Positions 6,027 to 19,863 of a stretch of DNA of 20,000 nucleotides are shown one piece after another; the first letter of the stretch is position 1, and every line of letters begins with the position of its first letter. The notes beneath the pieces were generated by a model. The model had not been told where the DNA came from. It made no database searches and saw only the letters and a program-made list of their open reading frames with translations. Made by a program: the position numbers and the translations under genes. This stretch comes from an uncultured virus (IMG/VR IMGVR_UViG_3300028888_000117) (Duplodnaviria > Heunggongvirae > Uroviricota > Caudoviricetes): the IMG/VR virus record IMGVR_UViG_3300028888_000117, one strand, 5' to 3'.

Positions 6027-6208
6027 TATTTATTGTATTGTTTTTATGTATTTTCTATATATAAATAAAAATAAATTTCTTAATTATATGGTTAAGAAAA
6101 AAATTTAGAAAAAAAATTGAATTTTTTTGACCATTTTACAATTTTATTATTATAATTATTTAAATTTAGAAAACATTAGAAAATAATATTAAGTAAACAG
6201 AAATTATT

Positions 6209-6313
6209 ATGATGCAACTCAGTCAACATATTGAATTTATTTTTGGATCATCTTTTTCAGGTGAACCTTGTGGATTGGGTGTAAATAAAGTTTCTGGTTA
6301 TACTGAAATATAA
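6209..6313 (+). CDS. Leader peptide of tRNA array 1 (34 aa, MMQLSQHIEFIFGSSFSGEPCGLGVNKVSGYTEI)
   Basis: ATG after an A-rich leader, TAA at 6311-6313; overlaps the antiterminator strand; codons 1-25 match the array 1 anticodon set. Confidence 0.8.
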   Translation: MMQLSQHIEFIFGSSFSGEPCGLGVNKVSGYTEI

Positions 6314-6386
6314 ATTTTGAATATACAGTACTTATAATATAAAGTAAGATCTCCAGAAACAAAATTCTGGAGATTGTTTGTTTTTT
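6290..6386 (+). terminator. Attenuator 1: intrinsic terminator with competing antiterminator
   Basis: Hairpin ATCTCCAGAA (6349-6358)/TTCTGGAGAT (6365-6374) followed by TGTTTGTTTTTT; GTTTCTGG (6290-6297) is the exact complement of CCAGAAAC (6353-6360). Confidence 0.8.
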
Positions 6387-6438: not shown

Positions 6439-6483
6439 TTTGAAATTAATTTTTAAGTTACTATATTATTAATATAATATTTG
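6439..6483 (+). promoter_or_regulatory. Repeated promoter-like motif TTTGAAATTA...ACTATATTATTAATATAATATT
   Basis: Close copies at 14887-14930 and 15453-15495; TTGAAA-N16-TATATT spacing. Confidence 0.55.
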
Positions 6484-6512
6484 AATACTAATATTATTTA
6501 AAATACAAACTT

Positions 6513-6584
6513 GGCCCGTTCGTCTATCGGTAAGGACTACAGGTTTTCAACCTGCCAAGAGGGGTCCGACTCCCCTACGGGCTA
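6513..6584 (+). tRNA. tRNA-Glu(TTC)
   Basis: Cloverleaf; anticodon arm CAGG-TTTTCAA-CCTG. Confidence 0.9.
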
Positions 6585-6621
6585 CTGAAACATAATTTGA
6601 TTAAGTTCAATAATGTTAAAC

Positions 6622-6644
6622 GTTCTTTGACATGTTGGTACAAT
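6622..6644 (+). promoter_or_regulatory. boxA-like antitermination element GTTCTTTGACATGTTGGTACAAT
   Basis: Identical 23-mer at 15545-15567, each shortly after the first tRNA of an array; resembles rrn boxA. Confidence 0.65.
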
Positions 6645-6734
6645 TAAGATATTTATAAAGTTAAACGTTGCTGTGAAAGCAATGACTAATCAGTTTCCAT
6701 TAAAGATTACTAATACTTTTGAGAGTGGATGTTC

Positions 6735-6827
6735 GGAGGTTTACCCAAGTTGGTGAAGGGGGCACACTGCTAACGTGCTAGGTCGGTGTAACCCATCGGC
6801 GCGGGGGTTCAAGTCCCTCAGCCTCCG
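6735..6827 (+). tRNA. tRNA-Ser(GCT)
   Basis: Class II cloverleaf, loop CTGCTAA, G73. Confidence 0.9.
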
Positions 6828-7060
6828 CTAAATATTCAAATATATCCGTAAGGAGTCAGAAGTTTAAATCTTTCCCTGGGTTTGAACTGCCTGGGTGGCA
6901 GAATGTTGAATGATTGCAATATTTGAATATTAAAATAGATATATGTCTGTATCACTGGTGTGATTAATAATTTGAAGCGTGGTTCGAAACCGCAACTAGG
7001 ATAGTTCAATTCTTGACTGGGCATGGGTGCAATATAATTATTCTTATATCTATTTAAATT

Positions 7061-7146
7061 GGAGAATGAACTGCGGCGGCCCGCAGGACTGTCTTGAAAA
7101 CAGCTCGTTCGGTGAAACGGATTGGGATCGACACCTACTTTCTCCG
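7061..7146 (+). tRNA. tRNA-Ser(TGA) with 8/4 fold (allo-tRNA-like)
   Basis: Acceptor GGAGAATG/CTTTCTCC, 6-bp D stem CTGCGG/CCGCAG, loop CTTGAAA, 4-bp T stem TGGG/CCTA. Confidence 0.75.
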
Positions 7147-7151
7147 CAAAC

Positions 7152-7327
7152 AAATCTACTAGTGTAGGATAGAGTTACTTCATAAGAAAGCTGATAACTT
7201 CTCAAAATTTTTCCAGTAAATGGAATACGGGTTCGAGTCCCGTCCATGGCATCGTGCCGCGGTGGTGAAATTGGTATACACGAAATTTTTATCTAATAAT
7301 TACTTTATTCATTAATTCTGTAGATTT
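7152..7327 (+). ncRNA. Y-RNA (YrlA)-like RNA with circularly permuted tRNA domain
   Basis: Closing stems AAATCTAC/GTAGATTT and GGATAGAGT/ACTTTATTC enclose a T arm (ACGGG-TTCGAGT-CCCGT), a loop-closed acceptor (CCATGGCA-TCG-TGCCGCGG) and then a D arm. Confidence 0.65.
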
Positions 7328-7334
7328 TATATTT

Positions 7335-7421
7335 GGTCAGGTGCCCGAGTCTGGTTGATGAGAGTAGTCTGCAAAACTATTGGAAGAAATTCCCGCGTGG
7401 GTTCAAATCCCACCCTGGCCT
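7335..7421 (+). tRNA. tRNA-Cys(GCA), long variable arm
   Basis: GTAGT-CTGCAAA-ACTAT, U73; variable hairpin GGAA-GAAA-TTCC. Confidence 0.85.
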
Positions 7422-7422
7422 C

Positions 7423-7563
7423 AAAATTATCTGGTGTATATAAGAGTTACTTCACGATTTTTAATTAAGTGGTTTTAATGCAATTTTTCCAGAATTGAAT
7501 CCTTGGTTCGAATCCAAGAGAATCGATATTTATTTATACTTTTATAGCTGTTCCGATAATTTT
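7423..7563 (+). ncRNA. GAGTTACTTC-stem RNA copy 2 (contains a T arm only)
   Basis: AAAATTATC/GATAATTTT closure, motif at 7444-7453, T arm CTTGG-TTCGAAT-CCAAG. Confidence 0.55.
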
Positions 7564-7568
7564 ATTTT

Positions 7569-7643
7569 GGGTCTGTGGTGTAGGTGGTTGTCGCTCGTCG
7601 GACTGAAAATCCGAAGGCACTTGTTCAACTCAAGTCGGACCCA
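7569..7643 (+). tRNA. tRNA-Phe(GAA)
   Basis: TCGGA-CTGAAAA-TCCGA. Confidence 0.88.
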
Positions 7644-7931
7644 CAATATAGATTACAGCCAAAAATGCTATGGAAAATATGTTGTAATTTATATTATAAA
7701 GACTTAGAGTAAATTTAGTAAAAGTCCCAGACGTGTATCTAAGTCTAAAACTATTTAAGCTCAACATTGGTTGAGTAAGCTCTGAAAACAATTATTTTAA
7801 TTTAACACGTGTCCTATAGTTGTTTTCATTATCTTAGAGCTATCTTGTACTTAAGGCGCCAAGAAGTACCTCGCCTACGCGGAATGTAGAGGAAATATTA
7901 AGTATGAGGATTTGGAAAGATTTATATTAAT

Positions 7932-8011
7932 CAGGGTGTAGCCGGTAATAGGTGACCGACTCGCTTTGGAAGCGAGATTAAGTTATGCAGGTTCGAGTCC
8001 TGTCTCCCTGA
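7932..8011 (+). tRNA. tRNA-Pro(TGG)
   Basis: CTCGC-TTTGGAA-GCGAG; C1:G72, A73. Confidence 0.88.
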
Positions 8012-8471
8012 CCTAATTGTAATTTTCAAGACCTGCGGACAAACGTTAAAGCAGCTGCAAGTCCAGCTCCAATATGGTATAGGACTCGGTAAGACCTATG
8101 TGGTCGATAGCTACGAACCCCATAGTGAGACGAGGAAAGTGAGAAGATTACAATTATCTTATATACGGAGATACGTGGTGAGACACCTAGTATGGCCCGC
8201 AAGGTTTGATAGTTTAAGATAGAATACCGTATAACAAATAAATGTTAGGAAATTGCCCACCGAGATTTAAGGTAGCTCCTTAAACAGCTGAATGGGAAAC
8301 ATGCAAGCTATGTTATGATATTGAATATCGGCCGTAAAATATCAATAACTTGAAGAGAAATAGTTAACATTTATTTTTGAAAAATATAATGATAATATCT
8401 ATTTATTATTATATAATCGGAATGTAGTAATTATTAATGATAGAAAAAATTAATAAGTTTCTTGAATATTT

Positions 8472-8555
8472 AGGGGTGTAACCGGTAATTGGTACCCGCC
8501 CGCATTTGGGATGCGGAAGCTTCGGCCTATGCGCGTTCGAGTCGCGTCGCCCCTA
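8472..8555 (+). tRNA. tRNA-Pro(TGG), enlarged variable region
   Basis: CCGCA-TTTGGGA-TGCGG; variable region AAGCTTCGGCCTAT. Confidence 0.85.
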
Positions 8556-8577
8556 CGATCTCAATCTTGGCAAATTT

Positions 8578-8646
8578 AATTGATTAGTGTAGTAGAGAGT
8601 TACTTCTAGGAATGCTTAAATACTTTCTACGATTATTCTATCAATT
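8578..8646 (+). ncRNA. GAGTTACTTC-stem RNA copy 3 (minimal)
   Basis: AATTGAT/ATCAATT and GTAGAGAGT/ACTTTCTAC stems, motif at 8597-8606. Confidence 0.55.
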
Positions 8647-8649
8647 TAT

Positions 8650-8721
8650 GCTCGGTTCATCTAAGGGTTAGGATTCAAGATTTTCATTCTTGCCATACGA
8701 GTTCGAATCTCGTACCGAGTA
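8650..8721 (+). tRNA. tRNA-Glu(TTC)
   Basis: CAAGA-TTTTCAT-TCTTG. Confidence 0.9.
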
Positions 8722-8722
8722 C

Positions 8723-8796
8723 AATTCCTTGTTGAAGAATAGAGTTACTTCAAGAATGGGTCTTTAAAAATACTTTATTCGCTTATTACAGGAATT
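8723..8796 (+). ncRNA. GAGTTACTTC-stem RNA copy 4 (minimal)
   Basis: AATTCCT/AGGAATT and GAATAGAGT/ACTTTATTC stems, motif at 8742-8751. Confidence 0.55.
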
Positions 8797-8803
8797 TTAA
8801 TAT

Positions 8804-8875
8804 GGGGCTGTCATCTAACGGTCAGGATCTCAGGTTTTCAACCTGGTCATCGGAGTTCGAGTCTCCGTGGCCCTA
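8804..8875 (+). tRNA. tRNA-Glu(TTC)
   Basis: TCAGG-TTTTCAA-CCTGG. Confidence 0.9.
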
Positions 8876-9102
8876 CAAAAGTTCATTATCCTAGACGATA
8901 GGTAAAGTTGGCATTAGAGATATGGGTTATCCGGAAATTTACCACATATCACTTGCCGGAGTTGTCATAATCGAGTGTACATAAGTAAAGAACTCCCAAA
9001 GGCTTGAGCTTTAATACATTGGGCGAGATGGAACAGAACTTTTATTTAAGTCGCTTACTAAAACGCTGCGGGTTTTTGAGGTTATCCATAAACCTCAAAT
9101 TT

Positions 9103-9175
9103 AGGGCTGTCGTCTAACTGGTAAGGATTTATCCCTGATAAGGATAAGATCCCGGATCATACCCGGGTGGCCCCA
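9103..9175 (+). tRNA. tRNA-Ile(GAT), atypical T loop ATCATAC
   Basis: TATCC-CTGATAA-GGATA; T stem CCCGG/CCGGG. Confidence 0.75.
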
Positions 9176-9185
9176 CAAATTAAAT

Positions 9186-9259
9186 TGGGATATACAGTAT
9201 AATGGTTAGTACAGCGGACTCTGACTCCGCAGGTTTCGGTTCGAATCCGGATATCCCAA
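9186..9259 (+). tRNA. tRNA-Gln(CTG)
   Basis: GCGGA-CTCTGAC-TCCGC; U1:A72. Confidence 0.9.
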
Positions 9260-9337
9260 CAATATAAGGTGACGAATTGGTGTCAGGTAGTCCGAAAGTA
9301 CAAGCCCACATTACGGGAAGAGCCTTATATTTATAAT

Positions 9338-9411
9338 TGGGCTATGCTGTGTAACGGTTAGCACGTCAGCCTTTGAAGCTGAAGGTCTGGGTTCGAATCC
9401 CGGTAGCCCAA
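9338..9411 (+). tRNA. tRNA-Gln(TTG)
   Basis: TCAGC-CTTTGAA-GCTGA; U1:A72. Confidence 0.9.
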
Positions 9412-9413
9412 CT

Positions 9414-9511
9414 AAGTAAGTAATATTTGAAGAGGATAGGTTCGACTCCTTAGTGTAACGGTAGCACACTTCGTATATATTTAATGCATTAATATATAAA
9501 ATTACTTACTT
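9414..9511 (+). ncRNA. Permuted tRNA-elbow mimic (T loop directly followed by a D arm)
   Basis: GGTTCGACTCC then TAGTGTAACGGTAGCAC inside GAAG/CTTC and AAGTAAGTAAT/ATTACTTACTT stems. Confidence 0.5.
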
Positions 9512-9517
9512 TTTAAT

Positions 9518-9591
9518 TGGGGCATAACTCAGTTGGTTAGAGTGTCAATCTGATACGTTGAAAGTCCCGTGTTCGAGTCACGGTGCCCCAA
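9518..9591 (+). tRNA. tRNA-Ile(GAT)
   Basis: TCAAT-CTGATAC-GTTGA. Confidence 0.9.
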
Positions 9592-9594
9592 CTT

Positions 9595-9825
9595 TGGGAA
9601 TTAGCAAAATGATTCGTATGAAAGTTATTATTTATAAATATTTGCGTAAGGCCGCAATTAGACTGAAAGTTCTCGAGATCAATAATATTTATAATAATGA
9701 TAAGTAATGACAGAAAGATAAAGTAATAAGAATAGCTAACTTACGAAATTGAATTTGAAAATGCGAACATACTGCGCTACCCGTGGGTGGGTAGAGGTCC
9801 TGTGAAAGTCAGTGGTTCCCGACCA
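9595..9825 (+). ncRNA. Pro-like tRNA scaffold with a ~160-nt insertion in the D region
   Basis: Acceptor TGGGAAT/GTTCCCG followed by ACCA; arm CTACC-CGTGGGTG-GGTAG; degenerate T arm. Confidence 0.4.
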
Positions 9826-9826
9826 T

Positions 9827-9902
9827 GCCGAGGTATACCCTCGCTCTCATAAGGCGTTGAAAGGTTAGTTGGTTCACGTGAGTTCGACCCTCACCCTCGG
9901 TA
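9827..9902 (+). tRNA. D-armless tRNA-like gene, anticodon CAT
   Basis: Acceptor GCCGAGG/CCTCGGT, CGCT-CTCATAA-GGCG, variable arm TGAA-AGGTTAGTTGG-TTCA, T arm GTGAG/CTCAC. Confidence 0.65.
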
Positions 9903-9930
9903 CATTTATATTAATATAAAGATATTATAT

Positions 9931-10003
9931 GCGGCTGTCGTATAACGGTTTATTATACTCGCCTTCCAAGCCAGTGACGTGGGTTCGACTCCCATCAGCC
10001 GCT
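9931..10003 (+). tRNA. tRNA-Gly(TCC)
   Basis: CTCGC-CTTCCAA-GCCAG (C:C mismatch), U73. Confidence 0.88.
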
Positions 10004-10178
10004 CGCATTAGTAATGGAGTTTGGTAACGAAGGGTGCTCCCAAGGTTCTCCACGTTAAATCCTTCATAGGAGTTTGAATGATTAATTTCATCAAATATTA
10101 AAAACTGTCTTTAATGTGGGCACCGTTTTATATTAAAATTTAAATTATATTAATGATATAATACGGTGCCTATATAAT

Positions 10179-10254
10179 GCATCTGTCGTATAACGGTTCA
10201 GTACGTTCGCCTTCCAAGCCTAAGACGTGGGTTCGACTCCCATCAGATGCTCCA
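10179..10254 (+). tRNA. tRNA-Gly(TCC), weak anticodon stem, CCA encoded
   Basis: TTCGC-CTTCCAA-GCCTA; ends TCCA. Confidence 0.8.
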
Positions 10255-10266
10255 TTCTTAATTGAT

Positions 10267-10340
10267 GGCCCTCGGGACAGATTGGTTTAAGTCGTCGGTC
10301 TCTCAAGCCGGAATAACGGGTTCGAATCCCGTGGGGGCTA
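10267..10340 (+). tRNA. tRNA-Glu(CTC)
   Basis: TCGGT-CTCTCAA-GCCGG. Confidence 0.9.
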
Positions 10341-10430
10341 CACGGCAGGTTTAACAAGGTTTCCTGCGTAATTTATAATTACTTAAGGTTAAGAAAAAAT
10401 GTTGTGACTAATAGGAGAGACTATTTATTT

Positions 10431-10561
10431 CGCGGAGTGGTGAGATTTTTTAATACTTTATTCGCTGTTGCTTCAATATGAATGCTGTAGATTAGAGTTA
10501 CTTCGGTATACACGCTTTTATTTGGAAAAAGATTATGTTGGTTCGAGTCCAACCTCCGCGA
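10431..10561 (+). tRNA. tRNA-like gene (loop ATTTGGA, TTG as written) with the GAGTTACTTC module in its D loop
   Basis: Acceptor CGCGGAG/CTCCGCG, D stem GTG...CAC split by ~60 nt, CTTTT/AAAAG arm, T arm GTTGG-TTCGAGT-CCAAC. Confidence 0.65.
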
Positions 10562-10710
10562 CAAACTTCTTTGATTATTTCTTTAAAGAAATATCCTATG
10601 ACTATATAATTGAATTACGTAATATATATTATATAGGAAGTATGCATAGGCGAGGGTTCAGATGGCGTGACACGGAACTAAGTTTTCGGATCTAAGGAAA
10701 ACCGAATAAT

Positions 10711-10782
10711 GCAGTGTAGGTGTTTATGGTTGCATATGAGATCGCCATTCTTAAGGAGCCAGTTCGAATCTGGTACGCTGCT
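10711..10782 (+). tRNA. tRNA-Gly(GCC), C at position 33
   Basis: TGAGA-TCGCCAT-TCTTA, U73. Confidence 0.8.
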
Positions 10783-10986
10783 CAATATGCAGGGAGCTGT
10801 GAGGTACGCAGCATGTCCGCCCTGCTCCAATAGAGGATACCCCTGAGGCCTCTTATAAATCCGCTTAGGGCCGTACCGAGGTTTACGTTGAAATCCCGCC
10901 CTCGCAGCTTGTGCAGTCATATGCCTTGAATATGATGAAAAACGTATCGGGACATATCAGGGAGCGCGGTTGACCTGATTTAATAT

Positions 10987-11061
10987 GGTGTCGTTAACTT
11001 AACTGGTAAAAGGCGGTGACTGTGAATCACTGAGATGTCGGTTCGAATCTGACACGATACC
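10987..11061 (+). tRNA. tRNA-His(GTG)
   Basis: G-1:C73; GGTGA-CTGTGAA-TCACT. Confidence 0.9.
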
Positions 11062-11226
11062 CAATAAAATCATCTGAGGGTCTGAAAAGAACTATATTCT
11101 AATGGCAAAGAATATGGATATTCAGAGAGGAGAACAGTTGGATGCCATTTCTATTTAAATAGAACCTTCTAGTTTCATGGCGTTAAGGATGACTTGAAAT
11201 AGTCTGTGTAAGATGATTTTATATAT

Positions 11227-11310
11227 GGTGGTATTCGTCTAGTGGCCGATGACGCCAGATTGTGGTCCTGGTAGCGAGAGCTCACGTTGGTTCGAATCCA
11301 ACATACCACC
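11227..11310 (+). tRNA. tRNA-His(GTG), long variable arm
   Basis: G-1:C73; loop TTGTGGT; variable hairpin AGC-GAGA-GCT. Confidence 0.85.
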
Positions 11311-11458
11311 TCGTGAATATCTTGAAGGAAACATCTATCTTAATAAATAGAAGAAGTTACCGTAGGCAACCAATGTGTAGCAACATACATTAGTGTATCA
11401 TTCATCAAGGCAAAATATTAGAGTTGTACGGGATAGTGGAATGTAAAGGTATTATTTT

Positions 11459-11549
11459 GGAGATGTAAGCCTAATTGGTAAGGCAGTAGTCTTGAAAACT
11501 ACTAGTAATCGTGAATAACGGTGTGTCGGTTCGAGTCCGGCCGTCTCCG
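11459..11549 (+). tRNA. tRNA-Ser(TGA)
   Basis: GTAGT-CTTGAAA-ACTAC; class II; G73. Confidence 0.9.
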
Positions 11550-11572
11550 CAGATATATAATATGTAGAGAAA

Positions 11573-11893
11573 ATGAAAATAGATGATAATAGATTTTTGA
11601 AAGATAGTGATAAGACTGGTCGTTTTATTGTTAAATCAAAAATCACAGGAAAGAAATATTTTATAGAACCTATAGGTAATACTCATTCTGCTGATTGGGG
11701 AGATTTGGATCCTGCAACTAAGAAAATGACAGGATCATACGGAGAACGATATGAAGGATGCGTACCAGAGAAAGATTCATTAATTACTAAAGAAAATGGA
11801 TTTGAAAAAATAGAATTATTAAATGCTGGTGTATCACCTTTGTCAGAAATAGACAGAAGAGATAAAGAATACCAAAAACAAATGGGTTTATAA
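11573..11893 (+). CDS. Hypothetical protein (106 aa) inside tRNA array 1
   Basis: ATG start, protein-like composition (..FIEPIG..WGDLDPATKK..GSYG..), fills the gap after tRNA-Ser. Confidence 0.85.
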   Translation: MKIDDNRFLKDSDKTGRFIVKSKITGKKYFIEPIGNTHSADWGDLDPATKKMTGSYGERYEGCVPEKDSLITKENGFEKIELLNAGVSPLSEIDRRDKEYQKQMGL

Positions 11894-12129
11894 ATTAAAG
11901 CATGCCGTCATAGGTTGGTGCACAGGCCTATGAATCGAAGTAGCCTAATATTATGGTGTTAGGAGAAATCGTACGTTCTGTTCCTTAAGTGCGTGGTCTG
12001 AGGAATCTATAGAAGCGTTAGTTAGAGTTGTTGTACCTGTATCTTCAGATATGTACCACATCCTATAGAGGGCGAGGAACCTCAGAAAGATACCATATCT
12101 TTCACGAAACTCGAAAGAGCCACGTGTAT

Positions 12130-12198
12130 CGGGGGTTAGCTCAACGATAGAGCCATGGATTTTACTATGAGACGGTTGTTTAACTCAATCACCCCTGA
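12130..12198 (+). ncRNA. tRNA-like element with a 6-nt anticodon loop (ATTTTA)
   Basis: Acceptor CGGGGGT/ACCCCTG, D arm GCTC/GAGC, T arm GGTTG-TTTAACT-CAATC. Confidence 0.55.
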
Positions 12199-12208
12199 CA
12201 AATTAAAT

Positions 12209-12267
12209 TGGTTACGCAGTAAATGGTACATGTATGCTAGCTATTTGGTTCGATTCCAACGTAACCA
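12209..12267 (+). ncRNA. Miniature tRNA-like element (~59 nt) without a proper anticodon arm
   Basis: TGGTTACG/CGTAACCA, GTA-AATGG-TAC, TTGG-TTCGATT-CCAA. Confidence 0.5.
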
Positions 12268-12291
12268 TCTATAAATGTTGATATTAATAAT

Positions 12292-12370
12292 ACCCTGCTA
12301 GACGAATTGGTATAGTCAGTAGCCTTAGAAGCTATCCTTAGGGGTCTGGGTTCGAGTCCCAGGCGGGGTA
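12292..12370 (+). tRNA. tRNA-Leu(TAG)
   Basis: GTAGC-CTTAGAA-GCTAT. Confidence 0.9.
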
Positions 12371-12386
12371 CAAAATTAAAATATAT

Positions 12387-12460
12387 AGGGCTGTAGCTTA
12401 GTGGTTTAAAGCACTTGCCTTACAAGCAAGGGAGCGTGAGTTCGACTCTCACCAGCCCTA
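12387..12460 (+). tRNA. tRNA-Val(TAC)
   Basis: CTTGC-CTTACAA-GCAAG. Confidence 0.92.
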
Positions 12461-12710
12461 CGAATACGATACCGTTTTTATATGTAGTTAAACCGGTTAA
12501 AATAAAACTACAAATTAACTCTTTGTTCAATGACTTGATGACAGGAATTTATCGTTACCTGTGAAAAAAGGAAATCATCAAGCTGAAAGAAATTGTAAAG
12601 AATGTCCCTGAGGGGGGTAACGTCTTTATAATTTCAAGTAAGACCAAGAAGTATGAATTATCTGTATGTCGCGAGTACATTTATTCAGAAGGTTAGAATA
12701 AAGAGAAAAT

Positions 12711-12790
12711 GGGGTTATGGCGCAATGGTCGACGCAGCAGCCTAAGACACTGTCCTTAATTGGGTGTGGGTTCGAATCCCACTAACCCCA
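12711..12790 (+). tRNA. tRNA-Leu(AAG), A34
   Basis: Leu-type D loop and variable arm; loop CTAAGAC. Confidence 0.82.
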
Positions 12791-12829
12791 CATCAAACAA
12801 ATTTAAGAAAAATATATAGAGGTATTATT

Positions 12830-13078
12830 ATGATTACTCATGATTTAAAAACTATCGTAAAAGGATCCGCTGTTTTAGATTGTGTTAAATCTGGTGGAAT
12901 TGCAGTTTATCATATAACTGTAGAAGATGGGACTGTCTATTCATTAGATATAGATTTGTCAGATAAACATGATGTTGGAGAAACTGCTACATTTATGTCT
13001 CATTATGATAAAGCATTAATATTGATGAGATGGATAAGACGAGCAATTGACAATAATGAATTATACAAAATTTCATAA
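12830..13078 (+). CDS. Hypothetical protein (82 aa, MITHDLKTIVKG...LMRWIRRAIDNNELYKIS)
   Basis: Start moved from 12764 (inside tRNA-Leu) to ATG 12830, which follows an SD-like AGAGGT. Confidence 0.82.
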   Translation: MITHDLKTIVKGSAVLDCVKSGGIAVYHITVEDGTVYSLDIDLSDKHDVGETATFMSHYDKALILMRWIRRAIDNNELYKIS

Positions 13079-13200
13079 TTTTATTAATGAACTTTATAAA
13101 ATTTCTTAATTGTATCAATATATAATACTGAACTTATCCGGTGATAGCGCGCGATAAAGAATTACAGAATGGTTCAACTCCATTAAGTTCAGTATATTTT

Positions 13201-13279
13201 GGCCCGATGGCGGAATTGGTCTACGCAGCCGTCTCAAAAGCGGTCCTTATGGGTCTGGGTTCGAATCCCAGTTGGGCTA
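13201..13279 (+). tRNA. tRNA-Leu(CAA)
   Basis: GCCGT-CTCAAAA-GCGGT. Confidence 0.9.
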
Positions 13280-13380
13280 CTCGCAATTGACACAAATATC
13301 CCAATAAAGTTATGTATATATTTTATTAATATATATGTAACTTTTTTTATTTTTAATATATAAATACATTAAACTTAGAA

Positions 13381-14659: not shown

Positions 14660-14773
14660 ATGCAACAAGTCAATACATATAAACAAATATTAGACCAAAT
14701 ATTAGATAATAATACTTGGAATAAGAATTATGCGTTATGTAAAGACCACTTGCATGGAGATTCTGAGATATAG
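14660..14773 (+). CDS. Leader peptide of tRNA array 2 (37 aa, MQQVNTYKQILDQILDNNTWNKNYALCKDHLHGDSEI)
   Basis: ATG after an A-rich leader, TAG at 14771-14773; overlaps the antiterminator strand; codons 1-32 largely match the array 2 anticodon set. Confidence 0.8.
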   Translation: MQQVNTYKQILDQILDNNTWNKNYALCKDHLHGDSEI

Positions 14774-14844
14774 GGGTACAATAAAATAGAAATGATATAA
14801 ATGCAAGTGGTTGGATTAACAAAAATCTAACCACTTATTTGTTT
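14745..14844 (+). terminator. Attenuator 2: intrinsic terminator with competing antiterminator
   Basis: Hairpin AAGTGGTTGGATT (14805-14817)/AATCTAACCACTT (14824-14836) followed by ATTTGTTT; ACCACTTGCAT (14745-14755) is the exact complement of ATGCAAGTGGT (14801-14811). Confidence 0.8.
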
Positions 14845-14886
14845 AAATAAAACAAACATAATATTTTTAAAAATTTTCTTAATTAA

Positions 14887-14930
14887 TTTAAAATTATAAA
14901 ATAAAGTACTATATTATTTATATAATATTT
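14887..14930 (+). promoter_or_regulatory. Promoter-like motif copy (..ACTATATTATTTATATAATATTT)
   Basis: Similar to 6439-6483 and 15453-15495. Confidence 0.45.
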
Positions 14931-14938
14931 AAAAATAT

Positions 14939-15059
14939 ATAATATTTATAAATGTATATCACAATAAATGTGATTAATATTTGAATACTAATAATATTTA
15001 TAAATGTATATCACAATAAATGTGATTAATATTTGAATACTAATAATATTTATAAATGT
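14939..15059. repeat. 52-bp perfect tandem repeat, ~2.3 copies
   Basis: AATATTTATAAATGTATATCACAATAAATGTGATTAATATTTGAATACTAAT starts at 14941 and 14993, partial copy at 15045. Confidence 0.9.
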
Positions 15060-15331: not shown

Positions 15332-15411
15332 GCCTCAATGGCGGAATGGTCTACGCAGAGCACTTAAAATGCTTCCTTAATTGGGTCTTGGTTCGAATCC
15401 AAGTTGAGGTA
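15332..15411 (+). tRNA. tRNA-Leu(TAA)
   Basis: GAGCA-CTTAAAA-TGCTT. Confidence 0.9.
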
Positions 15412-15452
15412 CAAAATTAATAAATAATTCTTTATAAATTTTTTCTTAGAAA

Positions 15453-15495
15453 TTTGAAATTATTTTTTAAAGAACTATATTATTAATATAATATT
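15453..15495 (+). promoter_or_regulatory. Promoter-like motif copy
   Basis: TTTGAAATTATTTTTTAAAGAACTATATTATTAATATAATATT, near-identical to 6439-6483. Confidence 0.55.
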
Positions 15496-15544
15496 CAAAT
15501 TCTAATTATATTTGAAAAGATATTATTTAGATTTTTGAAATTGA

Positions 15545-15567
15545 GTTCTTTGACATGTTGGTACAAT
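15545..15567 (+). promoter_or_regulatory. boxA-like antitermination element, second copy
   Basis: Identical to 6622-6644. Confidence 0.65.
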
Positions 15568-15828
15568 AAAATAAAAAATATTAAAGATATATGTGGGTAG
15601 CGTCACGGAGGACCCCTCCAAGCCAATATTTGGTGAGATTGCTTTATTGAGGTAAATAATCAGTACGGACAGAGGTCATTAGCATAAAATCGCATGTACT
15701 TTAATATTAACAACTGATTTGGAAGAGGTTAGGTGGAAAACCACTGCCAATGAGATGCCAAGCACCTCAGCGGTATAGTTCAGTAAATATATGCAGTAAT
15801 GTAAACAGAATTTCCTTATCATTAAGAA

Positions 15829-15916
15829 TTCCTGATTAGCTCAGATATTATAAGAGCGCTCATCGTTGCCTATGAAGTAACAGAGAGGTCATTGGTGTAA
15901 ATCCAATATTAGGAAC
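15829..15916 (+). ncRNA. tRNA-like element with an extended anticodon arm (loop CT-ATG-AA)
   Basis: TTCCTGAT/ATTAGGAA, D arm GCTC/GAGC, CTC..GTTGC-CTATGAA-GTAAC..GAG, T arm ATTGG-TGTAAAT-CCAAT. Confidence 0.5.
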
Positions 15917-16356
15917 TTAATATGAATGCCTTCGATGTTAGTAGTTAGACTATTTAATAAGTTGGAACAACATTCATAATTTTGGCTGAGGAAGTACCAC
16001 AGGAGCAGATTGAAATAAGTATTAGCCGATGTGGAATAATATTTTTGATGAGGCCATTTTTAATATGGGTCAAACCGATAAGCTGTAGCTGGAGGTCTGG
16101 AGGCTACCAACCGTTTGTACAGAATATGGACTATAGGCAAAAGTACTCGGAAACAGGTGGTGCTGTCGATGAAATTGTTCACCTTTAGGGTTCGATTCCC
16201 TAATGACCTGCAAAGATGTTAGAAAAGGTATAAAGTTCGAACATACCTGAGTAAATTAAATGTGATAATTCGTGCCCCACCGACGGTTATGATGAATGAT
16301 TAGTTGGGTTAAGTGATTGGATGAGGATTCACGACCTCAGCACAGCATCTTTATTT

Positions 16357-16428
16357 GGTGGTATAGTATAATGGTTATTATTTCGGCTTTGTAACCCGAC
16401 GATTTCAGTTCGATTCTGAATACCACCT
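16357..16428 (+). tRNA. tRNA-Thr(TGT)
   Basis: TCGGC-TTTGTAA-CCCGA. Confidence 0.85.
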
Positions 16429-16550
16429 CAAATATATTCTTCTGGTCTGGGAGGTTGGTTCAGACATGCTGCTAAATGTTGAAACATACAGGATTAAGCT
16501 CGGAGAAAATGCATTAAGAGGGTTCGATTCCCTTGAGAATATATTTATTT

Positions 16551-16623
16551 GGGGTTGCATGTTCCAAGGCAGGCGATGGACCTTTGCAAGGTTTGTGGGA
16601 GAGTTCGATTCTCTTCAGCTCCA
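16551..16623 (+). tRNA. tRNA-Ala(TGC)
   Basis: G3:U70, A73; GGACC-TTTGCAA-GGTTT; irregular D arm. Confidence 0.82.
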
Positions 16624-16809
16624 CAAATGGTTAATGTAATGTAAAATAAAAAACTTGGGATGTTATAATAAAACCATTACATTTGCGATTCGTTTCCTAT
16701 TTCCCATAGGTGTCGTTAAGAGGTCGGCTCGGTTGCTAGTTAAGGTTCGGTTTTGTACCGCTTAACTATATTCTGGTCAGCACAGAACGGTTCTCCAATT
16801 TTTAATTTT

Positions 16810-16883
16810 GCTCCTGTAGCTCAGCTGGTGGTAGCATCTGACTGTTAATCAGAGGGTCGCAGGTCCGAGTCCTGCCGGGAGCG
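16810..16883 (+). tRNA. tRNA-Asn(GTT)
   Basis: TCTGA-CTGTTAA-TCAGA, G73. Confidence 0.92.
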
Positions 16884-17063
16884 CTGAACATGGCTAATTC
16901 AATATCAGTGAAAACTCCAGCTGCAATTAATGGAAGAATAGTAACTGTGAGAATTAACAAATCATTACTTATTGCAGAAGTAATTTATCATCTGGTGTAA
17001 TGGTAGCATACCGGGATCCCTCGGAGGAAAGGTTCAATTCCTTATTGATAGCAAATATTTTAT

Positions 17064-17149
17064 GTGTCTTTGGCCGAGCGGTTTAAGGCAGTTGGCTGTT
17101 AACCAACCGAGGTGAATAACCTCCGAGGGTTCGAATCCCCCAGGGCACG
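17064..17149 (+). tRNA. tRNA with Asn anticodon (GTT) on a class II body
   Basis: GTTGG-CTGTTAA-CCAAC; variable arm GAGGT-GAATA-ACCTC; G73. Confidence 0.85.
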
Positions 17150-17229
17150 CGAGTGGTTTGAGTGTTGAATTGACAACTGAAAGGATGAAGAGCTTCCCGT
17201 GGTCCGAAAATGCTAAGTTCATCCATGAT

Positions 17230-17318
17230 GGCTCGATGATGGAATTGGTCTACATGTGGCACTTAAAATGCCATGGGCCGTAAGGCCCTTGCGGGTTCGA
17301 GTCCCGCTCGAGCTACCA
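17230..17318 (+). tRNA. tRNA-Leu(TAA), CCA encoded
   Basis: TGGCA-CTTAAAA-TGCCA. Confidence 0.92.
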
Positions 17319-17444
17319 ATAATATGAGTGTGGAAATAACTTGTAACTCAAGTAGAGAGTTTCCAGTAAATGGGTGGCAAGAAGAGTAAAGAGCTTACAA
17401 TTTAGCCATATTATTATTTTAGATCATTTAGGTGACAGATATTT

Positions 17445-17517
17445 GGTCTCTTGGTTGAATGGTTACAATGTCAGACTGTCGATCTGTACGGTACGGGTTC
17501 GAATCCCGTAGGGACCG
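17445..17517 (+). tRNA. tRNA-Asp(GTC)
   Basis: CAGA-CTGTCGA-TCTG, G73. Confidence 0.88.
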
Positions 17518-17702
17518 CAAATAGAAATTAATAATTTATAAATATAAAATTTAAAACATATGAAAACAATGAAACGAAAACGTTAGTTGTGTATGTTTCC
17601 TGAGAGAAATTGGTATTAAGCAGTTTAACCAATTAGAAGCATGCACGTTAAATCAAAATTAAACGCAAATTATTATTAAGTTTAATACAATTTATTGTGT
17701 AT

Positions 17703-17775
17703 GCCCTCTTAGCTGAGTTGGTAAAGCTGCGGCCTTTTAAGCCGAGGATCCAGGGTTCGAATCCCTGAGGGGGTA
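17703..17775 (+). tRNA. tRNA-Lys(TTT)
   Basis: CGGC-CTTTTAA-GCCG. Confidence 0.9.
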
Positions 17776-17782
17776 CTAATTT

Positions 17783-17857
17783 GCTCTCATGGCGTTAATT
17801 GGTCAGCGTACAAGACTTTTAATCTTCGAGGTCTGGGTTCGAGTCCCAGTGGGAGCA
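17783..17857 (+). tRNA. tRNA-Lys(TTT)
   Basis: AAGA-CTTTTAA-TCTT. Confidence 0.88.
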
Positions 17858-17870
17858 CAAATAATATAAT

Positions 17871-17944
17871 GCTCCGTTAGCTCAGTTGGTTAGAGTAGTT
17901 GCCTCTTAAGCATCGGGTCCAGGGTTCGAATCCCTGCCGGAGTA
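17871..17944 (+). tRNA. tRNA-Lys(CTT)
   Basis: GTTGC-CTCTTAA-GCATC. Confidence 0.88.
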
Positions 17945-17952
17945 CATATATT

Positions 17953-18025
17953 GGGGAGGTCGTTTAGTGGTCCAGGACAGTAGGCTTACATCCTACCAAC
18001 CAGAGTTCGATTCTCTGCCGCCCCA
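17953..18025 (+). tRNA. tRNA-Val(TAC)
   Basis: GTAGG-CTTACAT-CCTAC. Confidence 0.88.
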
Positions 18026-18222
18026 CTCTTGCATGCCATGCAAAACTTATGGAGAAATTTACAGCTACGGTTGATATTGATAGTTCGAAATATTAAATAT
18101 CTTATCCATAAGTACTTATAATGATAAAGTAATGACGGTAGAAGTCCGTGGTAACTACTTTGACGCTATATTACTTGAGATAACAGAACGGATTATCCTT
18201 TATAAGTCAAACCGAAGCTTTT

Positions 18223-18295
18223 GGTCTCTTGGTTGAACGGTAACAATGTCGGATTGTCGATCCGTACGGTACGGGTTCGAATCCCGTAGGGACCG
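18223..18295 (+). tRNA. tRNA-Asp(GTC)
   Basis: CGGA-TTGTCGA-TCCG; close paralog of 17445-17517. Confidence 0.88.
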
Positions 18296-18504
18296 CGATT
18301 CATTATAACATTTTGTAATGAATTAAGGGAAGAAATGGAAGATAGATTATTAAATTTGTTTGTGAAAATAGATTTAATAGAAAAGGGTAAAACTCAAAAG
18401 CGATTGGGAATATAACCATCCCCTTTATAGATGGGATTTTTACCATCATGGTAAAGATTTGGTTGAATCTAAACTAATCCTAAGTACAAATACGTTTAGC
18501 AGTT

Positions 18505-18533
18505 AGTAGAAACACTGGGAGTTTCTACTTTTT
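18505..18533 (+). terminator. Terminator-like hairpin inside array 2
   Basis: AGTAGAAAC-ACTGGGA-GTTTCTACT plus a T run, directly before tRNA-Tyr. Confidence 0.4.
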
Positions 18534-18536
18534 ATT

Positions 18537-18620
18537 GGGGGTTTATTCCGTAAGTGGTAGCGGGGATGACTGTAAATCATCTGGCTTCGGCCTCGGGGTG
18601 TTCGACTCACTCAGCCCCCA
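18537..18620 (+). tRNA. tRNA-Tyr(GTA)
   Basis: GATGA-CTGTAAA-TCATC; class II. Confidence 0.9.
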
Positions 18621-18706
18621 CAATAATATTATTAATAAATTTAAAAGTTAAGAGTTATGAAGGATTATTATTATTGCTATAACGAAGATGATAGTAATTA
18701 TAGCAA

Positions 18707-18802
18707 GCCGACGTAACCGAAGCGGTCCGTAAAACCGTTCTGCTCTATCAAATCTCGGTATTGGCCTCTAGCAGTAAGTAGGTTCGAATCCTACCGGCGG
18801 CA
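18707..18802 (+). tRNA. D-armless tRNA-like gene, loop CC-GTA-AA
   Basis: GCCGACG/CGGCGGC, GCGGT/ACCGT arm, variable stem CTGCT/AGCAG, T arm GTAGG-TTCGAAT-CCTAC. Confidence 0.6.
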
Positions 18803-18819
18803 CAAACAATTCTTAACTA

Positions 18820-18952
18820 TGCTGGTTTATTACGGTATATTGGTAACCGTACCGCCCTGTGAAGGCGGTCTTACTAACCGAAGATTATTACAACCGCGGA
18901 TAAGTAATAATTAATAGGAGTAAGTATGGAGGTTCGATTCCTTCGAAGGCAC
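18820..18952 (+). tRNA. tRNA-His(GTG)-like gene with a ~60-nt variable domain
   Basis: D stem TACGGT/ACCGTA, CCGCC-CTGTGAA-GGCGG, T arm GGAGG-TTCGATT-CCTTC; irregular acceptor. Confidence 0.55.
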
Positions 18953-19065
18953 AATGGTTTTACAAATCAAATTAATCAATGAGGTAAAATCTCAATTCTA
19001 AGTTTTTGATGAAACACTTTGGTTCGGTAAAATTCCGATATGAATTTATTTGATTAAGGAGATTT

Positions 19066-19138
19066 GCGCTCTTAGCTCAGTTGGGAGAGCAACGGGCTTT
19101 TAATCCGTGGGTCCTGGGTTCGAGTCCCAGAGGGCGTA
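19066..19138 (+). tRNA. tRNA-Lys(TTT)
   Basis: ACGGG-CTTTTAA-TCCGT. Confidence 0.92.
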
Positions 19139-19144
19139 CAATTT

Positions 19145-19216
19145 ACCCCTATGGCAGAAGGGTTCATGCAATAGACTCTTAATCTATCTATCAGGGTTCG
19201 AGTCCCTGTGGGGGTA
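19145..19216 (+). tRNA. tRNA-Lys(CTT)
   Basis: ATAGA-CTCTTAA-TCTAT. Confidence 0.9.
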
Positions 19217-19222
19217 CAATAT

Positions 19223-19294
19223 CGCGGAAGCAGTGTGTAGGTCGCATACAAGGCTCATAACCTTAGTGGTGGAGTTCAATTCTCACTTCCGCAA
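19223..19294 (+). tRNA. tRNA-Met(CAT), initiator-like
   Basis: C1:A72 mismatch; AAGG-CTCATAA-CCTT. Confidence 0.8.
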
Positions 19295-19498
19295 CAATAT
19301 TTTAATCAGGACGGAGTTAATCAATGAGAGTACAATGTGAGTAGTAGGGTTACATCTACAGGTTATGGTGAAAGCAAAGGAAATTGATTACGATGGTGGT
19401 ACAGGTATTAGGAGGTGTACAACTCGCGAAATATCCGAGGCCGGAGGATAGTTTAGTGAACCATATCACGGAAGACTAGGTGGGTTAAAATATTATTT

Positions 19499-19577
19499 AC
19501 AGCGGTATCGTCACAGTCTTATACACTGACATTAACCACGTAATTGGTGTATGTGGGTTCGAGTCCCACCCGCTGTA
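19499..19577 (+). tRNA. D-armless tRNA-like gene, anticodon TAT (Ile AUA reader?)
   Basis: ACAGCGG/CCGCTGT, CAGT-CTTATAC-ACTG, variable region containing ACGTAATTGG, T arm GTGGG-TTCGAGT-CCCAC. Confidence 0.65.
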
Positions 19578-19784
19578 CACCAGTTGGAGTAACGCACCGA
19601 CTAGTATCGGGCACAATACGACGAGAAATAGGATGGCATCCTATATGTGTCAAAACTGATGAGTAGGTCTTGTATCGCGGAGGAGCAGATGTCAGTTGAT
19701 TAAAAGTTGCAGTCTGGTATACGCGAGCAGATCCCCAGAAAAGGCAAGGATCTGTGAGTTACCGGTCTCAAAATACCGGTTTAT

Positions 19785-19857: not shown

Positions 19858-19863
19858 CATTAT

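Follow-up and report, generated by a model that had tools for sequence, protein, structure and literature searches.

The enterobacterial attenuators of amino-acid operons include those of trp, his, leu and phe as well as the multivalent leaders of thr and ilvGMEDA. In E. coli, the pheM leader attenuator of pheST senses one amino acid by means of its Phe codons and gates a synthetase, and the T-box riboswitch (RF00230) binds uncharged tRNA directly, an ORF being unnecessary. Why phages carry tRNA genes and how these genes are controlled has been debated for decades, codon compensation being one proposal. Leader-peptide transcription attenuators are treated in PMC3082878 and PMC6614838, and escape from tRNA-cutting host defences is a more recent proposal for phage tRNA genes that is put forward in PMC10264068. 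In the literature that was searched, no description of a codon-matched attenuator ahead of a phage tRNA array was found.

The window, that is, the whole stretch of 20,000 nucleotides analysed here, belongs to an uncultured huge (giant) phage from the rumen, the hosts of which are ruminant gut bacteria. It carries the layout of an attenuator twice, each time as a short ORF, a strand late in that ORF (region 2), an intrinsic terminator and then a block of tRNA genes. Judging from the sequences of the window and its relatives, units 1 and 2 are probably, though with appreciable doubt, ribosome-mediated attenuators, each sensing the supply of the tRNAs that it gates.

Similar to the amino-acid operon attenuators, each unit possesses a short leader ORF, an intrinsic terminator and a predicted antiterminator that overlaps the 5' arm of the terminator; the putative regulatory codons lie upstream of the antiterminator strand, and a ribosome finishing at the stop codon would disfavour the antiterminator. 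In contrast, the phage units precede tRNA genes instead of genes for biosynthetic enzymes, their leaders list about a dozen amino acids with one to four codons each instead of runs for one to three amino acids, two paralogous units divide the code, a promoter-like box lies downstream of the terminator, and the predicted pairing of regions 1 and 2 that would serve as anti-antiterminator has no support from co-variation. Attenuation of a component of the translation apparatus, which would feed back on decoding capacity, would be shared with pheM/pheST; unlike pheM, the phage leaders appear to sample many tRNA species and to gate the tRNA genes themselves. A terminator/antiterminator switch that responds to tRNA status and feeds back on genes for translation supply would also resemble the T-box, from which the phage units differ in that features of an ORF are conserved and in that no T-box match was obtained over the window with the Rfam covariance model at E up to 0.1.

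Layout of the two units in the window and in its relatives

Unit 1 and the tRNA array behind it comprise the following features.

6127..6156, + strand: sigma-70-like promoter candidate for leader 1, with 11 of 12 consensus matches
6209..6313, + strand: leader ORF 1, 34 codons and TAA, with an ATG ATG start
6215..6283, + strand: proposed sensing zone of leader 1 (codons 3-25), 23 of 23 codons readable by array-1 tRNAs
6245..6267, + strand: conserved hairpin within leader ORF 1 (A5 consensus fold, columns 103-125)
6290..6297, + strand: region 2 of unit 1, the putative antiterminator strand in codons 28-30, a perfect 8-nt complement of 6353-6360
6348..6386, + strand: intrinsic terminator 1, an 11-pair stem (6348-6375) with a T-rich run to 6386; region 3 is 6353-6360
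6440..6490, + strand: promoter-like box 3' of terminator 1 (TTGAAA, 16-18 nt, TATATT type), with a conserved 10-nt box at 6460
6513..13280, + strand: tRNA array 1, 24 ARAGORN tRNAs for E, S, C, G, F, P, I, Q, H, L and V
7060-7146 and 9827-9903, + strand: tRNA-like elements in array 1
9827..9903, + strand: the second of these, a CAT element without D-arm, found by reading 9592-9931

Unit 2 is a paralogous unit located before the second array.

14660..14773, + strand: leader ORF 2, 37 codons and TAG
14695..14719, + strand: conserved hairpin within leader ORF 2 (A4 consensus fold, columns 95-119)
14745..14755, + strand: region 2 of unit 2, the putative antiterminator strand in codons 29-32, an 11-nt perfect complement of 14801-14811
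14801..14846, + strand: region 3 (14801-14811) and intrinsic terminator 2 (stem 14805-14836) with a T-rich tail, from scan, co-variation and fold
14908..15050, + strand: promoter-like box at 14908 and a tandem pair of AT-rich repeat units, 3' of terminator 2, with another box at 15474
15332..20000, + strand: tRNA array 2, which continues beyond the window; 16 tRNAs by ARAGORN, for L(taa), T, A, N, D, K, V, Y and W
19224-19293 and 19499-19577, + strand: extra Rfam tRNA matches in array 2, the first called Met(cat) by permissive ARAGORN

Both units are kept in huge-phage contigs from ruminant gut metagenomes, where leader 1 was found as 18 homologous ORFs with 10 distinct sequences and leader 2 as 26 ORFs with 17 distinct sequences; the variants are relatives of each other, and binomial and Fisher figures computed across them therefore overstate how independent they are. 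The 390-aa neighbour protein shows 34-93% identity across the leader-bearing loci, and one locus (L012) is 99.9% identical to the window only over 3381-15350 and divergent beyond. An ATG-started ORF of 32-43 codons is present in all 10 leader-1 and all 17 leader-2 variants, and the distant relatives L010 and L011 possess the same architecture with different stem sequences. A tight DNA pattern search returned five contigs, all among the known loci, together with a chance match without tRNAs (L170); a loose pattern gave chance matches, and loci from L052 onward were not used. A profile search of a protein library added 17 leader-1-like small peptides of 32-60 aa, which are sequences without genomic context. 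No match was obtained for the three long ORFs of the window in PHROGs and Pfam, for 6100-6520 as DNA or the 390-aa protein by tblastn in the GenBank phage collection, or, in usable form, in the protein atlas.

The earlier note on this DNA had proposed a 34-codon ORF ahead of array 1 that overlaps an antiterminator strand complementary to the 5' arm of a terminator. The ORF is present, and the 8-nt complementarity co-varies among the relatives. In the window alone this complement is only mildly unusual, as 116 of 5000 shuffled and 175 of 5000 Markov-simulated sequences did equally well; across the variants, 90% of the antiterminator is paired, a value reached by 2 of 500 shuffles. In 4 of the 10 sequences, a switch between TCT and TCC in region 2 goes together with A/G in the terminator arm, TCC being a rare codon. 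An intrinsic terminator follows the leader in 10/10 variants. In nine of them the distance from the start of region 2 to the stop codon is exactly 19 nt, with ORF lengths of 34-40 codons, and this fixed spacing would place a terminating ribosome over region 2. The leader-1 variant of L005 is a frameshifted tail variant.

In unit 2, the 11-nt complement was equalled by none of 5000 shuffles and by 2 of 5000 Markov simulations. Its antiterminator helix has 94.6% of cells paired and six of 11 pairs changed on both sides (0/500 shuffles as high; slid controls 25-41%), and terminator 2 has 95.9% of cells paired and six of 13 pairs changed on both sides. Since four of the antiterminator pairs that changed on both sides lie outside the terminator stem, this co-variation is not a by-product of the terminator. 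The scan found a terminator after 16 of the 17 leader-2 variants, and inspection by eye found one after the last. In 12/17 variants, the stop codon comes 26 nt after region 2 begins, a spacing at which a terminating ribosome would hardly cover region 2, and unit 2 therefore needs the predicted 1:2 fold. Wherever the 390-aa gene sits, leader 2 is located between Leu(caa) and the first tRNA of array 2; to judge from this position, leader 2 is tied to the tRNAs and not to the neighbouring gene.

The alternative folds of each unit are predicted to be near-equal in energy, with -13.7 kcal/mol for the unit-1 antiterminator, which forms when the 3' arm of the terminator is withheld from the fold, versus -15.0 kcal/mol for terminator 1, and with -18.1 versus -16.6 kcal/mol for the antiterminator and terminator of unit 2. 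For the leader-internal 1:2 pairing, rod-like folds are predicted in the window and are absent from the consensus folds; one side of the 1:2 helix is the invariant start-codon region and hence uninformative for co-variation. The hairpin within leader 1 comprises eight pairs, both bases of one pair being swapped in 4/10 sequences, and also appears in the window's own fold; it is possibly a pause hairpin for RNA polymerase. That within leader 2 likewise has eight pairs, one of which is C-G in 11 and U-A in six sequences.

Upstream of leader 1, a -10-like element occurs in the relatives at a similar spacing to the ATG (alignment A5). A Bacteroidetes-type -7 promoter motif was dropped, its spacing misfitting by eye. 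Metatranscriptome run X2 contains 0.69 of the sampled words from 5950-6950, and some other RNA runs contain small shares of them, all of which is uninformative on expression either way. Downstream of terminator 1, the promoter-like site that the earlier note had pointed out is present at 6440-6469. The box or a close variant stands between the terminator and the first tRNA in 10/10 leader-1 units printed, and boxes of the same type (TTGAAA, ~17 nt, TATATT type) lie downstream of each terminator in printed relatives. Transcription of the arrays may start from these boxes without passing the attenuator, and their conservation counts against exclusive control by read-through.

Codons of the leaders and anticodons of the arrays

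Codons 1-25 of leader 1 contain exactly 12 amino acids (M, Q, L, S, H, I, E, F, G, P, C, V) and none of A, D, K, N, R, T, W or Y, as the earlier note had stated in matching them to the 12 amino acids of array 1. Because Met is present in any ORF, the real match is that of 11 amino acids to 11, and the exact alphabet does not extend to all relatives: codon 2 of leader 1 is Lys or Thr in 6/10 variants, and the 17 library peptides include Arg within the first 25 residues in five, Trp in two, and Asn, Thr or Lys at positions 2-5 in several. The codon and anticodon pairs listed for leader 1 all hold, CTC/AAG presuming a modified A34. The readings of TCT and CCT in leader 1 presume wide wobble of U34.

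The twelfth amino acid had been assigned to a D-armless CAT gene. A tRNA-like element does exist at 9827-9903; it combines an acceptor stem and a T-arm with an anticodon-type loop that contains CAT, the D-arm being absent. Neither ARAGORN, in default or mitochondrial mode, nor Rfam (E up to 0.1) called it as such, and permissive ARAGORN gave an overlapping intron-bearing Ala(cgc) gene at 9780-9903. Relatives have a normal Met(cat) gene at the same position of the array. A BLAST search for a homologue of this gene in array 1 of the window found only 20-nt matches, in the D-arm region of another tRNA.

For the readability counts, each locus was scored against its own array, with the assumptions that U34 reads four-fold boxes and that A34 is read as inosine. 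The end of the sensing zone was set by a ribosome-footprint rule (first nucleotide of the A-site + 12 < region 2), which puts the end of the leader-1 zone at codon 23. In the window, only 0.404 of the codons of the three long genes are readable by array 1, versus all 23 of leader-1 codons 3-25. N-terminal runs of 22-25 codons readable by array 1 occur in 5 of 1449 six-frame ORFs (at least 30 codons, 20 loci), the next best run being 14. The number of these ORFs agrees with that of the five leader-1 homologues having Met at codon 2.

Across the variants, the core array-1 set can read 67 of the 72 distinct column-codon states in codons 3-23 of leader 1 (background 0.421), and the array-2 set only 14/72. 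In the leader-2 zone the relation is reversed, with 83 of 84 states readable by the array-2 set (background 0.639) and 22/84 by the array-1 set. Scored against its own array, leader 1 has 223 readable codons and 7 others in the zone and 61 and 47 in the tail under default ARAGORN, or 230 and 0 in the zone and 62 and 46 in the tail under relaxed calling; for leader 2, the figures are 165 and 15 in the zone and 54 and 47 in the tail. Foreign codons are concentrated in the tails. In the 10 leader-1 variants, the first of them starts 2-11 nt before region 2 (worked by hand), the point at which masking of region 2 by a ribosome would set in. Many of the substitutions in the zones are non-conservative yet stay inside the tRNA-readable set.

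The exceptions, beyond codon 2 of leader 1, are a TTA in leader 1 of L005, where Leu(taa) is missing under default tRNA calling, and a TCA in leader 2 of L050. In the window, the leader-2 zone contains four CAA and two ATA codons for which the part of array 2 inside the window offers no tRNA; in relatives, this array includes Gln(ttg) and Ile(tat).

The leaders also follow differences between arrays. Multiple TTA codons in leader 1 are confined to L006 and L028, which are the loci with Leu(taa) in array 1, and Arg codons in the leader-1 zone are confined to the variant of L019/L031, array 1 of L031 having Arg(tct) and Arg(acg). In L006, Ile(tat) is kept in array 1, and leader 2 has no ATA in its first 24 codons; in the distant L011, the Trp and Val tRNAs are in array 1, and the leader-2 zone is without W and V. 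A check that had been proposed for this locus, co-variation of the leader codon set with the array anticodon set, gave a positive result, as permuted leader-to-array pairings were as good in only 169 of 20000 cases under default and 49 of 20000 under relaxed tRNA calling.

These results bear on the reading that the attenuators report general translation capacity, such as ribosome availability, elongation rate or host shut-off, with the codon match as a secondary matter. The architecture itself needs no codon specificity, codons outside the set are tolerated at positions 2-3, and most leader codons are used only one to four times each. On the other hand, general capacity gives no account of complementary alphabets that track two arrays, of foreign codons confined to the tails, or of a leader whose content changes where Leu(taa), Arg, Ile(tat), Trp and Val tRNAs have been gained or moved, and we regard it as unlikely, if the most serious of the rivals. 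The low copy number also bears on the sensing of individual tRNA sets: classical attenuators use runs of the regulatory codon, and with single to four copies here, sensitivity to a mild tRNA shortage is doubtful.

Proposed switch and competing explanations

In the proposed mechanism of tRNA-supply sensing, the short ORF would be translated while RNA polymerase moves ahead, and region 2, located late in the ORF, could pair with region 3, the 5' arm of the terminator. When tRNAs are sufficient, a ribosome that reaches the stop codon of unit 1 would cover region 2, whereas in unit 2 this strand would be taken up by the leader fold; in either case, the terminator hairpin could form and transcription would stop. 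A ribosome waiting within the first 23-25 codons would leave region 2 free to pair with region 3, by which the terminator would be blocked and the polymerase could continue into the tRNA genes. Because the early codons are nearly all read by the block downstream, each unit would report the usable tRNA, of host and phage together, for its own set. The logic would be that of an OR-gate over about a dozen tRNA species, with negative feedback by which each set is topped up. We infer that the ORFs are translated, that ribosomes stall in them and that read-through contributes meaningfully to transcription of the arrays; in nature, the switch could be triggered by feedback on supply, by codons that are mismatched to the host or by tRNA-cutting nucleases of the host. 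The leader-peptide attenuator of the earlier note is supported in its design by the comparison of relatives, as ORF, terminator and antiterminator are kept with co-variation, the stop spacing is fixed and unit 2 matches array 2.

An RNA switch with a non-ribosome input, that is, a protein or a tRNA as in a T-box, would make the ORF incidental or leave it a second role. Some conservation is indeed at the level of RNA: region 2 and the mid-ORF hairpins are conserved as such, two reading frames are used in the tail of leader 2, and the third codon positions of the leader-2 zone are highly conserved. Such a switch is nevertheless improbable in view of the reading frames. Start codon and open frame through region 2 are kept in 10/10 leader-1 and 17/17 leader-2 variants, in the latter even though region 2 is read in two frames, despite AT-rich and stop-prone DNA, and the 19-nt position of the leader-1 stop is fixed. 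In leader 1 synonymous variation is present, and variability peaks at the third codon position (entropy 0.79 vs 0.57 and 0.58). Furthermore, the amino-acid alphabet rule is meaningful only if the frame is read, and no Rfam family, the T-box included, was matched at E up to 0.1.

Slightly less probable still are two ordinary small protein genes with their own promoters and terminators, standing beside arrays that are driven independently. Conserved peptide sequences, the promoter-like box after each terminator and the frequency of small genes of unknown function in phages would fit this explanation. It is opposed by the substitutions, which are often non-conservative but inside the set defined by the tRNAs, by tails that are conserved as RNA rather than as peptide, by a strand within the ORF that co-varies with the terminator arm and its 5' flank, and by a leader content that co-varies with array content; in addition, Pfam gave nothing meaningful for the leader peptides, the single match (E 0.12) being far under the cut-off.

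A nascent-peptide arrest leader of the tnaC, erm or secM type, stalling on a small molecule or factor, would suit this architecture as would any stall-dependent attenuator, and the core of leader 1 (~codons 18-22) is nearly invariant in amino acids, but it is very improbable, since that core overlaps the conserved RNA hairpin, the remaining zone varies freely within the alphabet, leader 2 is a different peptide with the same logic, and no reason is given for the match to the arrays.

The two leaders as a possible gauge of the tRNA pool

If tRNA-supply sensing by the two units is true, the phage would measure decoding directly and dose its tRNA sets by need, and the leader would show which tRNAs are treated by the phage as one regulatory unit. 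Attenuation would be extended to tRNA genes, beyond genes for amino-acid biosynthesis or synthetases, with a leader that covers roughly a dozen amino acids in place of one to three. Such a unit would also provide a simple and testable sensor of single-tRNA shortage.

A further and more tentative reading, to which we give somewhat less than even chances, is that the leaders together may constitute a species-by-species gauge with which the phage reads the tRNA pool, the loss of any one species turning on the half that corresponds to it in a nearly complete set of replacement tRNAs. Such a loss might arise if phage and host match poorly, if the phage induces tRNA turnover, or through anticodon nucleases of the host, and the leader would change with every move of a tRNA gene from one array to the other. 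This change of the leader upon a move of a tRNA gene is a prediction that can be checked on any new genome of the clade. The two leaders jointly spell 18-19 of the 20 amino acids, Arg being absent, and these are split between the leaders in exactly the way in which the tRNA genes are split between the arrays.

tRNA arrays of the window and the leaders before them

The window belongs to a huge uncultured phage of ruminant guts; the stretch occurs in sequencing runs of sheep, goat and bovine gut metagenomes, and no match to the window sequence searched turned up among GenBank phages. The G+C content of its coding parts is approximately 22%, and ARAGORN placed 40 tRNA genes on the plus strand between 6513 and 19858.

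Features of the window
Running off the window start, minus strand: ORF of 364 aa, no family match
1095-6026, minus strand: ORF of 1643 aa, no Pfam or PHROGs match, divergent from the leader-1 promoter region
6209-6313: leader ORF 1
6348-6375: terminator 1, followed by a T-run
6513-13280, plus strand: array 1, 24 tRNAs (ARAGORN)
13381-14553: 390-aa gene separating array 1 from array 2
14660-14773: leader ORF 2, 37 codons, TAG stop
14805-14836: terminator 2
From 15332, running off the window, plus strand: array 2, 16 tRNAs (ARAGORN)

The earlier note had claimed leader ORF 1, its terminator and T-run, and an 8-nt strand (6290-6297) complementary to 6353-6360, all of which are present. On its own, the 8-nt complement is weak evidence; 116 of 5000 shuffles were equally good. 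The note had also equated the 12 amino acids of leader codons 1-25 with those of array 1. The 12 stand, and by ARAGORN array 1 serves 11 of them, the twelfth, Met, depending on a tRNA-like element (9827-9903) that has a CAT loop but no D-arm. This element occupies the place of a normal Met(cat) gene in relatives; none of the tools used called it a Met gene, and permissive ARAGORN reads a stretch overlapping it as an intron-bearing Ala gene. Under the decoding rules chosen for this analysis, array-1 tRNAs can read 0.404 of the codons in window genes versus all leader-1 codons 3-25, and N-terminal runs of 22-25 array-1-readable codons occurred in 5 of 1449 six-frame ORFs from 20 loci, the next best run being 14.

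Reading on through the window revealed an arrangement before array 2 that matches unit 1 (leader 1 with its terminator). In this unit 2, the 11-nt strand 14745-14755 is a perfect complement of 14801-14811, a segment overlapping the 5' arm of terminator 2, and no shuffle of 5000 was equally good. N, T, Y, K, D, W and A are frequent in the first 24-26 codons of leader 2; they are exactly those served by array 2 and avoided by leader 1. Within the zone, the early codons proposed to sense tRNA supply, leader 1 contains every one of the nine amino acids exclusive to array 1 and none of the seven exclusive to array 2, and leader 2 contains six of these seven, the seventh, Ala, being at codon 25. Zone 2 also contains Ile as ATA and Gln as CAA, and it counts against the proposed attenuator reading that Gln(ttg) and Ile(tat) were not seen in array 2 up to the window end, where the array runs off.

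Codon content of the leaders among related loci

The loci compared lie on viral and metagenome contigs as long as 435 kb and were reached via the 390-aa protein, which has 98 relatives in the protein collection at 34-93% identity. A profile search of all their small plus-strand ORFs placed leader-1 homologues at 18 sites (10 distinct sequences) and those of leader 2 at 26 (17 distinct), with a terminator after every homologue found; 17 further small peptides of the family came from a profile search of 1.84 billion proteins. Leader 2 invariably follows Leu(caa) and precedes the first array-2 tRNA even though the 390-aa gene sits inside array 1 in L003, L005 and L009 (10001-11170), so the leaders are tied to the tRNA sets and not to this gene. 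The last five residues are common to some leader-1 and leader-2 variants, so units 1 and 2 are probably duplicates whose early parts were rewritten.

Of 72 distinct column-codon states in leader-1 codons 3-23, the core array-1 set can read 67 (background 0.421), and all five others are TTA; only 14 of the 72 fit the array-2 set. The leader-2 zone is the converse, with 83 of 84 states fitting the array-2 set (background 0.639) and 22 the array-1 set. Formal probabilities for such counts overstate independence because the sequences are related. Replacements are often chemically unlike and yet remain within the set, such as Glu to Val, Ile or Ser and Phe to Ser or Pro, which argues against a conserved functional peptide. 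Compared with each locus's own array, leader 1 is readable at 223 of 230 zone codons (230 of 230 with relaxed tRNA calling) and at 61 of 108 in the tail that follows; for leader 2, whose arrays are cut by locus ends, the values are 165 of 180 and 54 of 101. The first foreign codon, worked out by hand in ten leader-1 variants, starts 2-11 nt before region 2, the antiterminator strand late in the ORF. Codons 2-3 escape the rule, and 5 of the 17 further family peptides have an early Arg; both are counted against the attenuator reading.

The leader-array co-variation that the earlier note had proposed to test was borne out; permuted pairings equalled it in 169 of 20000 trials and, under relaxed tRNA calling, in 49 of 20000. 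Leu(taa) is in array 1 of L006 and L028, the only two loci using TTA more than once in leader 1. Arg codons enter the zone only in leader 1 of L019 and L031, the latter with Arg(tct) and Arg(acg) in its array 1. Array 1 of L006 retains Ile(tat), and no ATA occurs among codons 1-24 of leader 2 in this locus. In the distant L011, Trp and Val tRNAs are in array 1, and the leader-2 zone is free of W and V, with all 19 codons readable by its array 2.

Putative translation of the leaders and the proposed switch

Several traits suggest that the leader frames are translated. Variation in leader 1 (34-40 codons) peaks at the third codon position, and its stop codon lies exactly 19 nt after the start of region 2 in nine of ten variants; given the usual ribosome footprint, a terminating ribosome would sit on region 2 and cover it. 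All 17 leader-2 variants keep the frame open across region 2 despite its being read in two frames; the constraint thus acts on the tail as RNA and on the early part as codons. The unit-2 stop codon is too far downstream for simple masking in 12 of 17 variants, which is counted against attenuation of this kind.

The unit-2 antiterminator helix is paired in 94.6% of cells, and 6 of its 11 pairs have changed on both strands; shuffles never reached this level, and slid controls reached 25-41%. Four of the antiterminator's pairs lie 5' of the terminator stem, and their co-variation is therefore not a side effect of the terminator, which itself shows co-variation as well. In unit 1, the region-2 Ser codon is TCT with A in the arm and the rare TCC with G (4 of 10 sequences). 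When the 3' arm is withheld, the antiterminator forms in the fold with an energy close to that of the terminator. Each leader has a conserved mid-ORF hairpin with one co-varying pair, possibly a pause signal, and the start region is predicted to pair with region 2 in folds of the window only. The stretch from each terminator to the first tRNA contains a conserved promoter-like box. Transcription may thus enter the arrays by two routes, read-through being just one, and this is likewise counted against the attenuator reading.

The codon-matched leader is a confirmed observation, and the putative attenuator design together with the codon match is well supported by the comparison. It is moderately likely that the units function as attenuators. 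They would be a variant of leader-peptide attenuation, sharing the logic of the trp, his, thr, ilv and pheM-pheST systems but differing in which genes are controlled and in the way the leader is composed. Rfam gave no match to T-box or any other family. Searches of open full-text literature turned up no account of leader peptides preceding tRNA arrays and no paper with "tRNA array" and "leader peptide" together.

Other features of the arrays

The 390-aa protein is conserved and always embedded in tRNA arrays at a variable position; without a match in Pfam, PHROGs, GenBank phages or the protein atlas, it is possibly a tRNA-related factor or the product of a mobile gene. L012 1-11969 is 99.9% identical to window 3381-15350 up to the start of the first array-2 tRNA, which is Leu(taa) in the window and Gln(ttg) in L012, and diverges thereafter, a mosaic exchange of array segments with the break just after the leader-2 unit.

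Downstream of terminator 2, two tandem AT-rich units of ~52 nt each (14940-15050) end, by eye, in the same promoter-like words; L001 has fewer copies. The ~280 nt leading from the promoter-like box to array 2 (~15050-15330) contain a T-arm-like piece and are conserved in L001, L002, L003, L005, L006, L009, L015, L028 and L041; with no Rfam match at E up to 0.1, this is conceivably a structured RNA. Inside array 2, a G+C-richer stretch of ~800 nt (15560-16357) gave no tRNA or Rfam call, with intron-bearing calls by permissive ARAGORN only, and its 15712-16214 part is 82% identical to L012 12468-12950.

A tRNA gene at 7060-7146 was missed by ARAGORN; its L001 counterpart is called Ser(tga), and it scores 43.8 bits, below the gathering score, against the Rfam tRNA-Sec model. 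In relatives, tRNAs in or at the end of array 2 carry anticodons cta or tta, which would read the stops TAG and TAA (L006/L007 19863; L011 12830; L001 19542, by permissive call only), a hint that stop codons are reassigned or suppressed. In the window's clade, the stop of leader 2 is TAG. Several tRNAs, Leu(aag), Cys(aca), Thr(agt) and Arg(acg), begin their anticodon with A (window 12711-12791; L001 5667; L003 14273; L005 12009), which is unusual in bacteria outside Arg(acg) and may imply A-to-I editing in this system. Finally, a recurring ~12-nt word lies shortly before tRNA 5' ends (window 6625-6650 and 15547-15570) and, in many relatives, before first tRNAs, possibly as a processing signal or part of a promoter.
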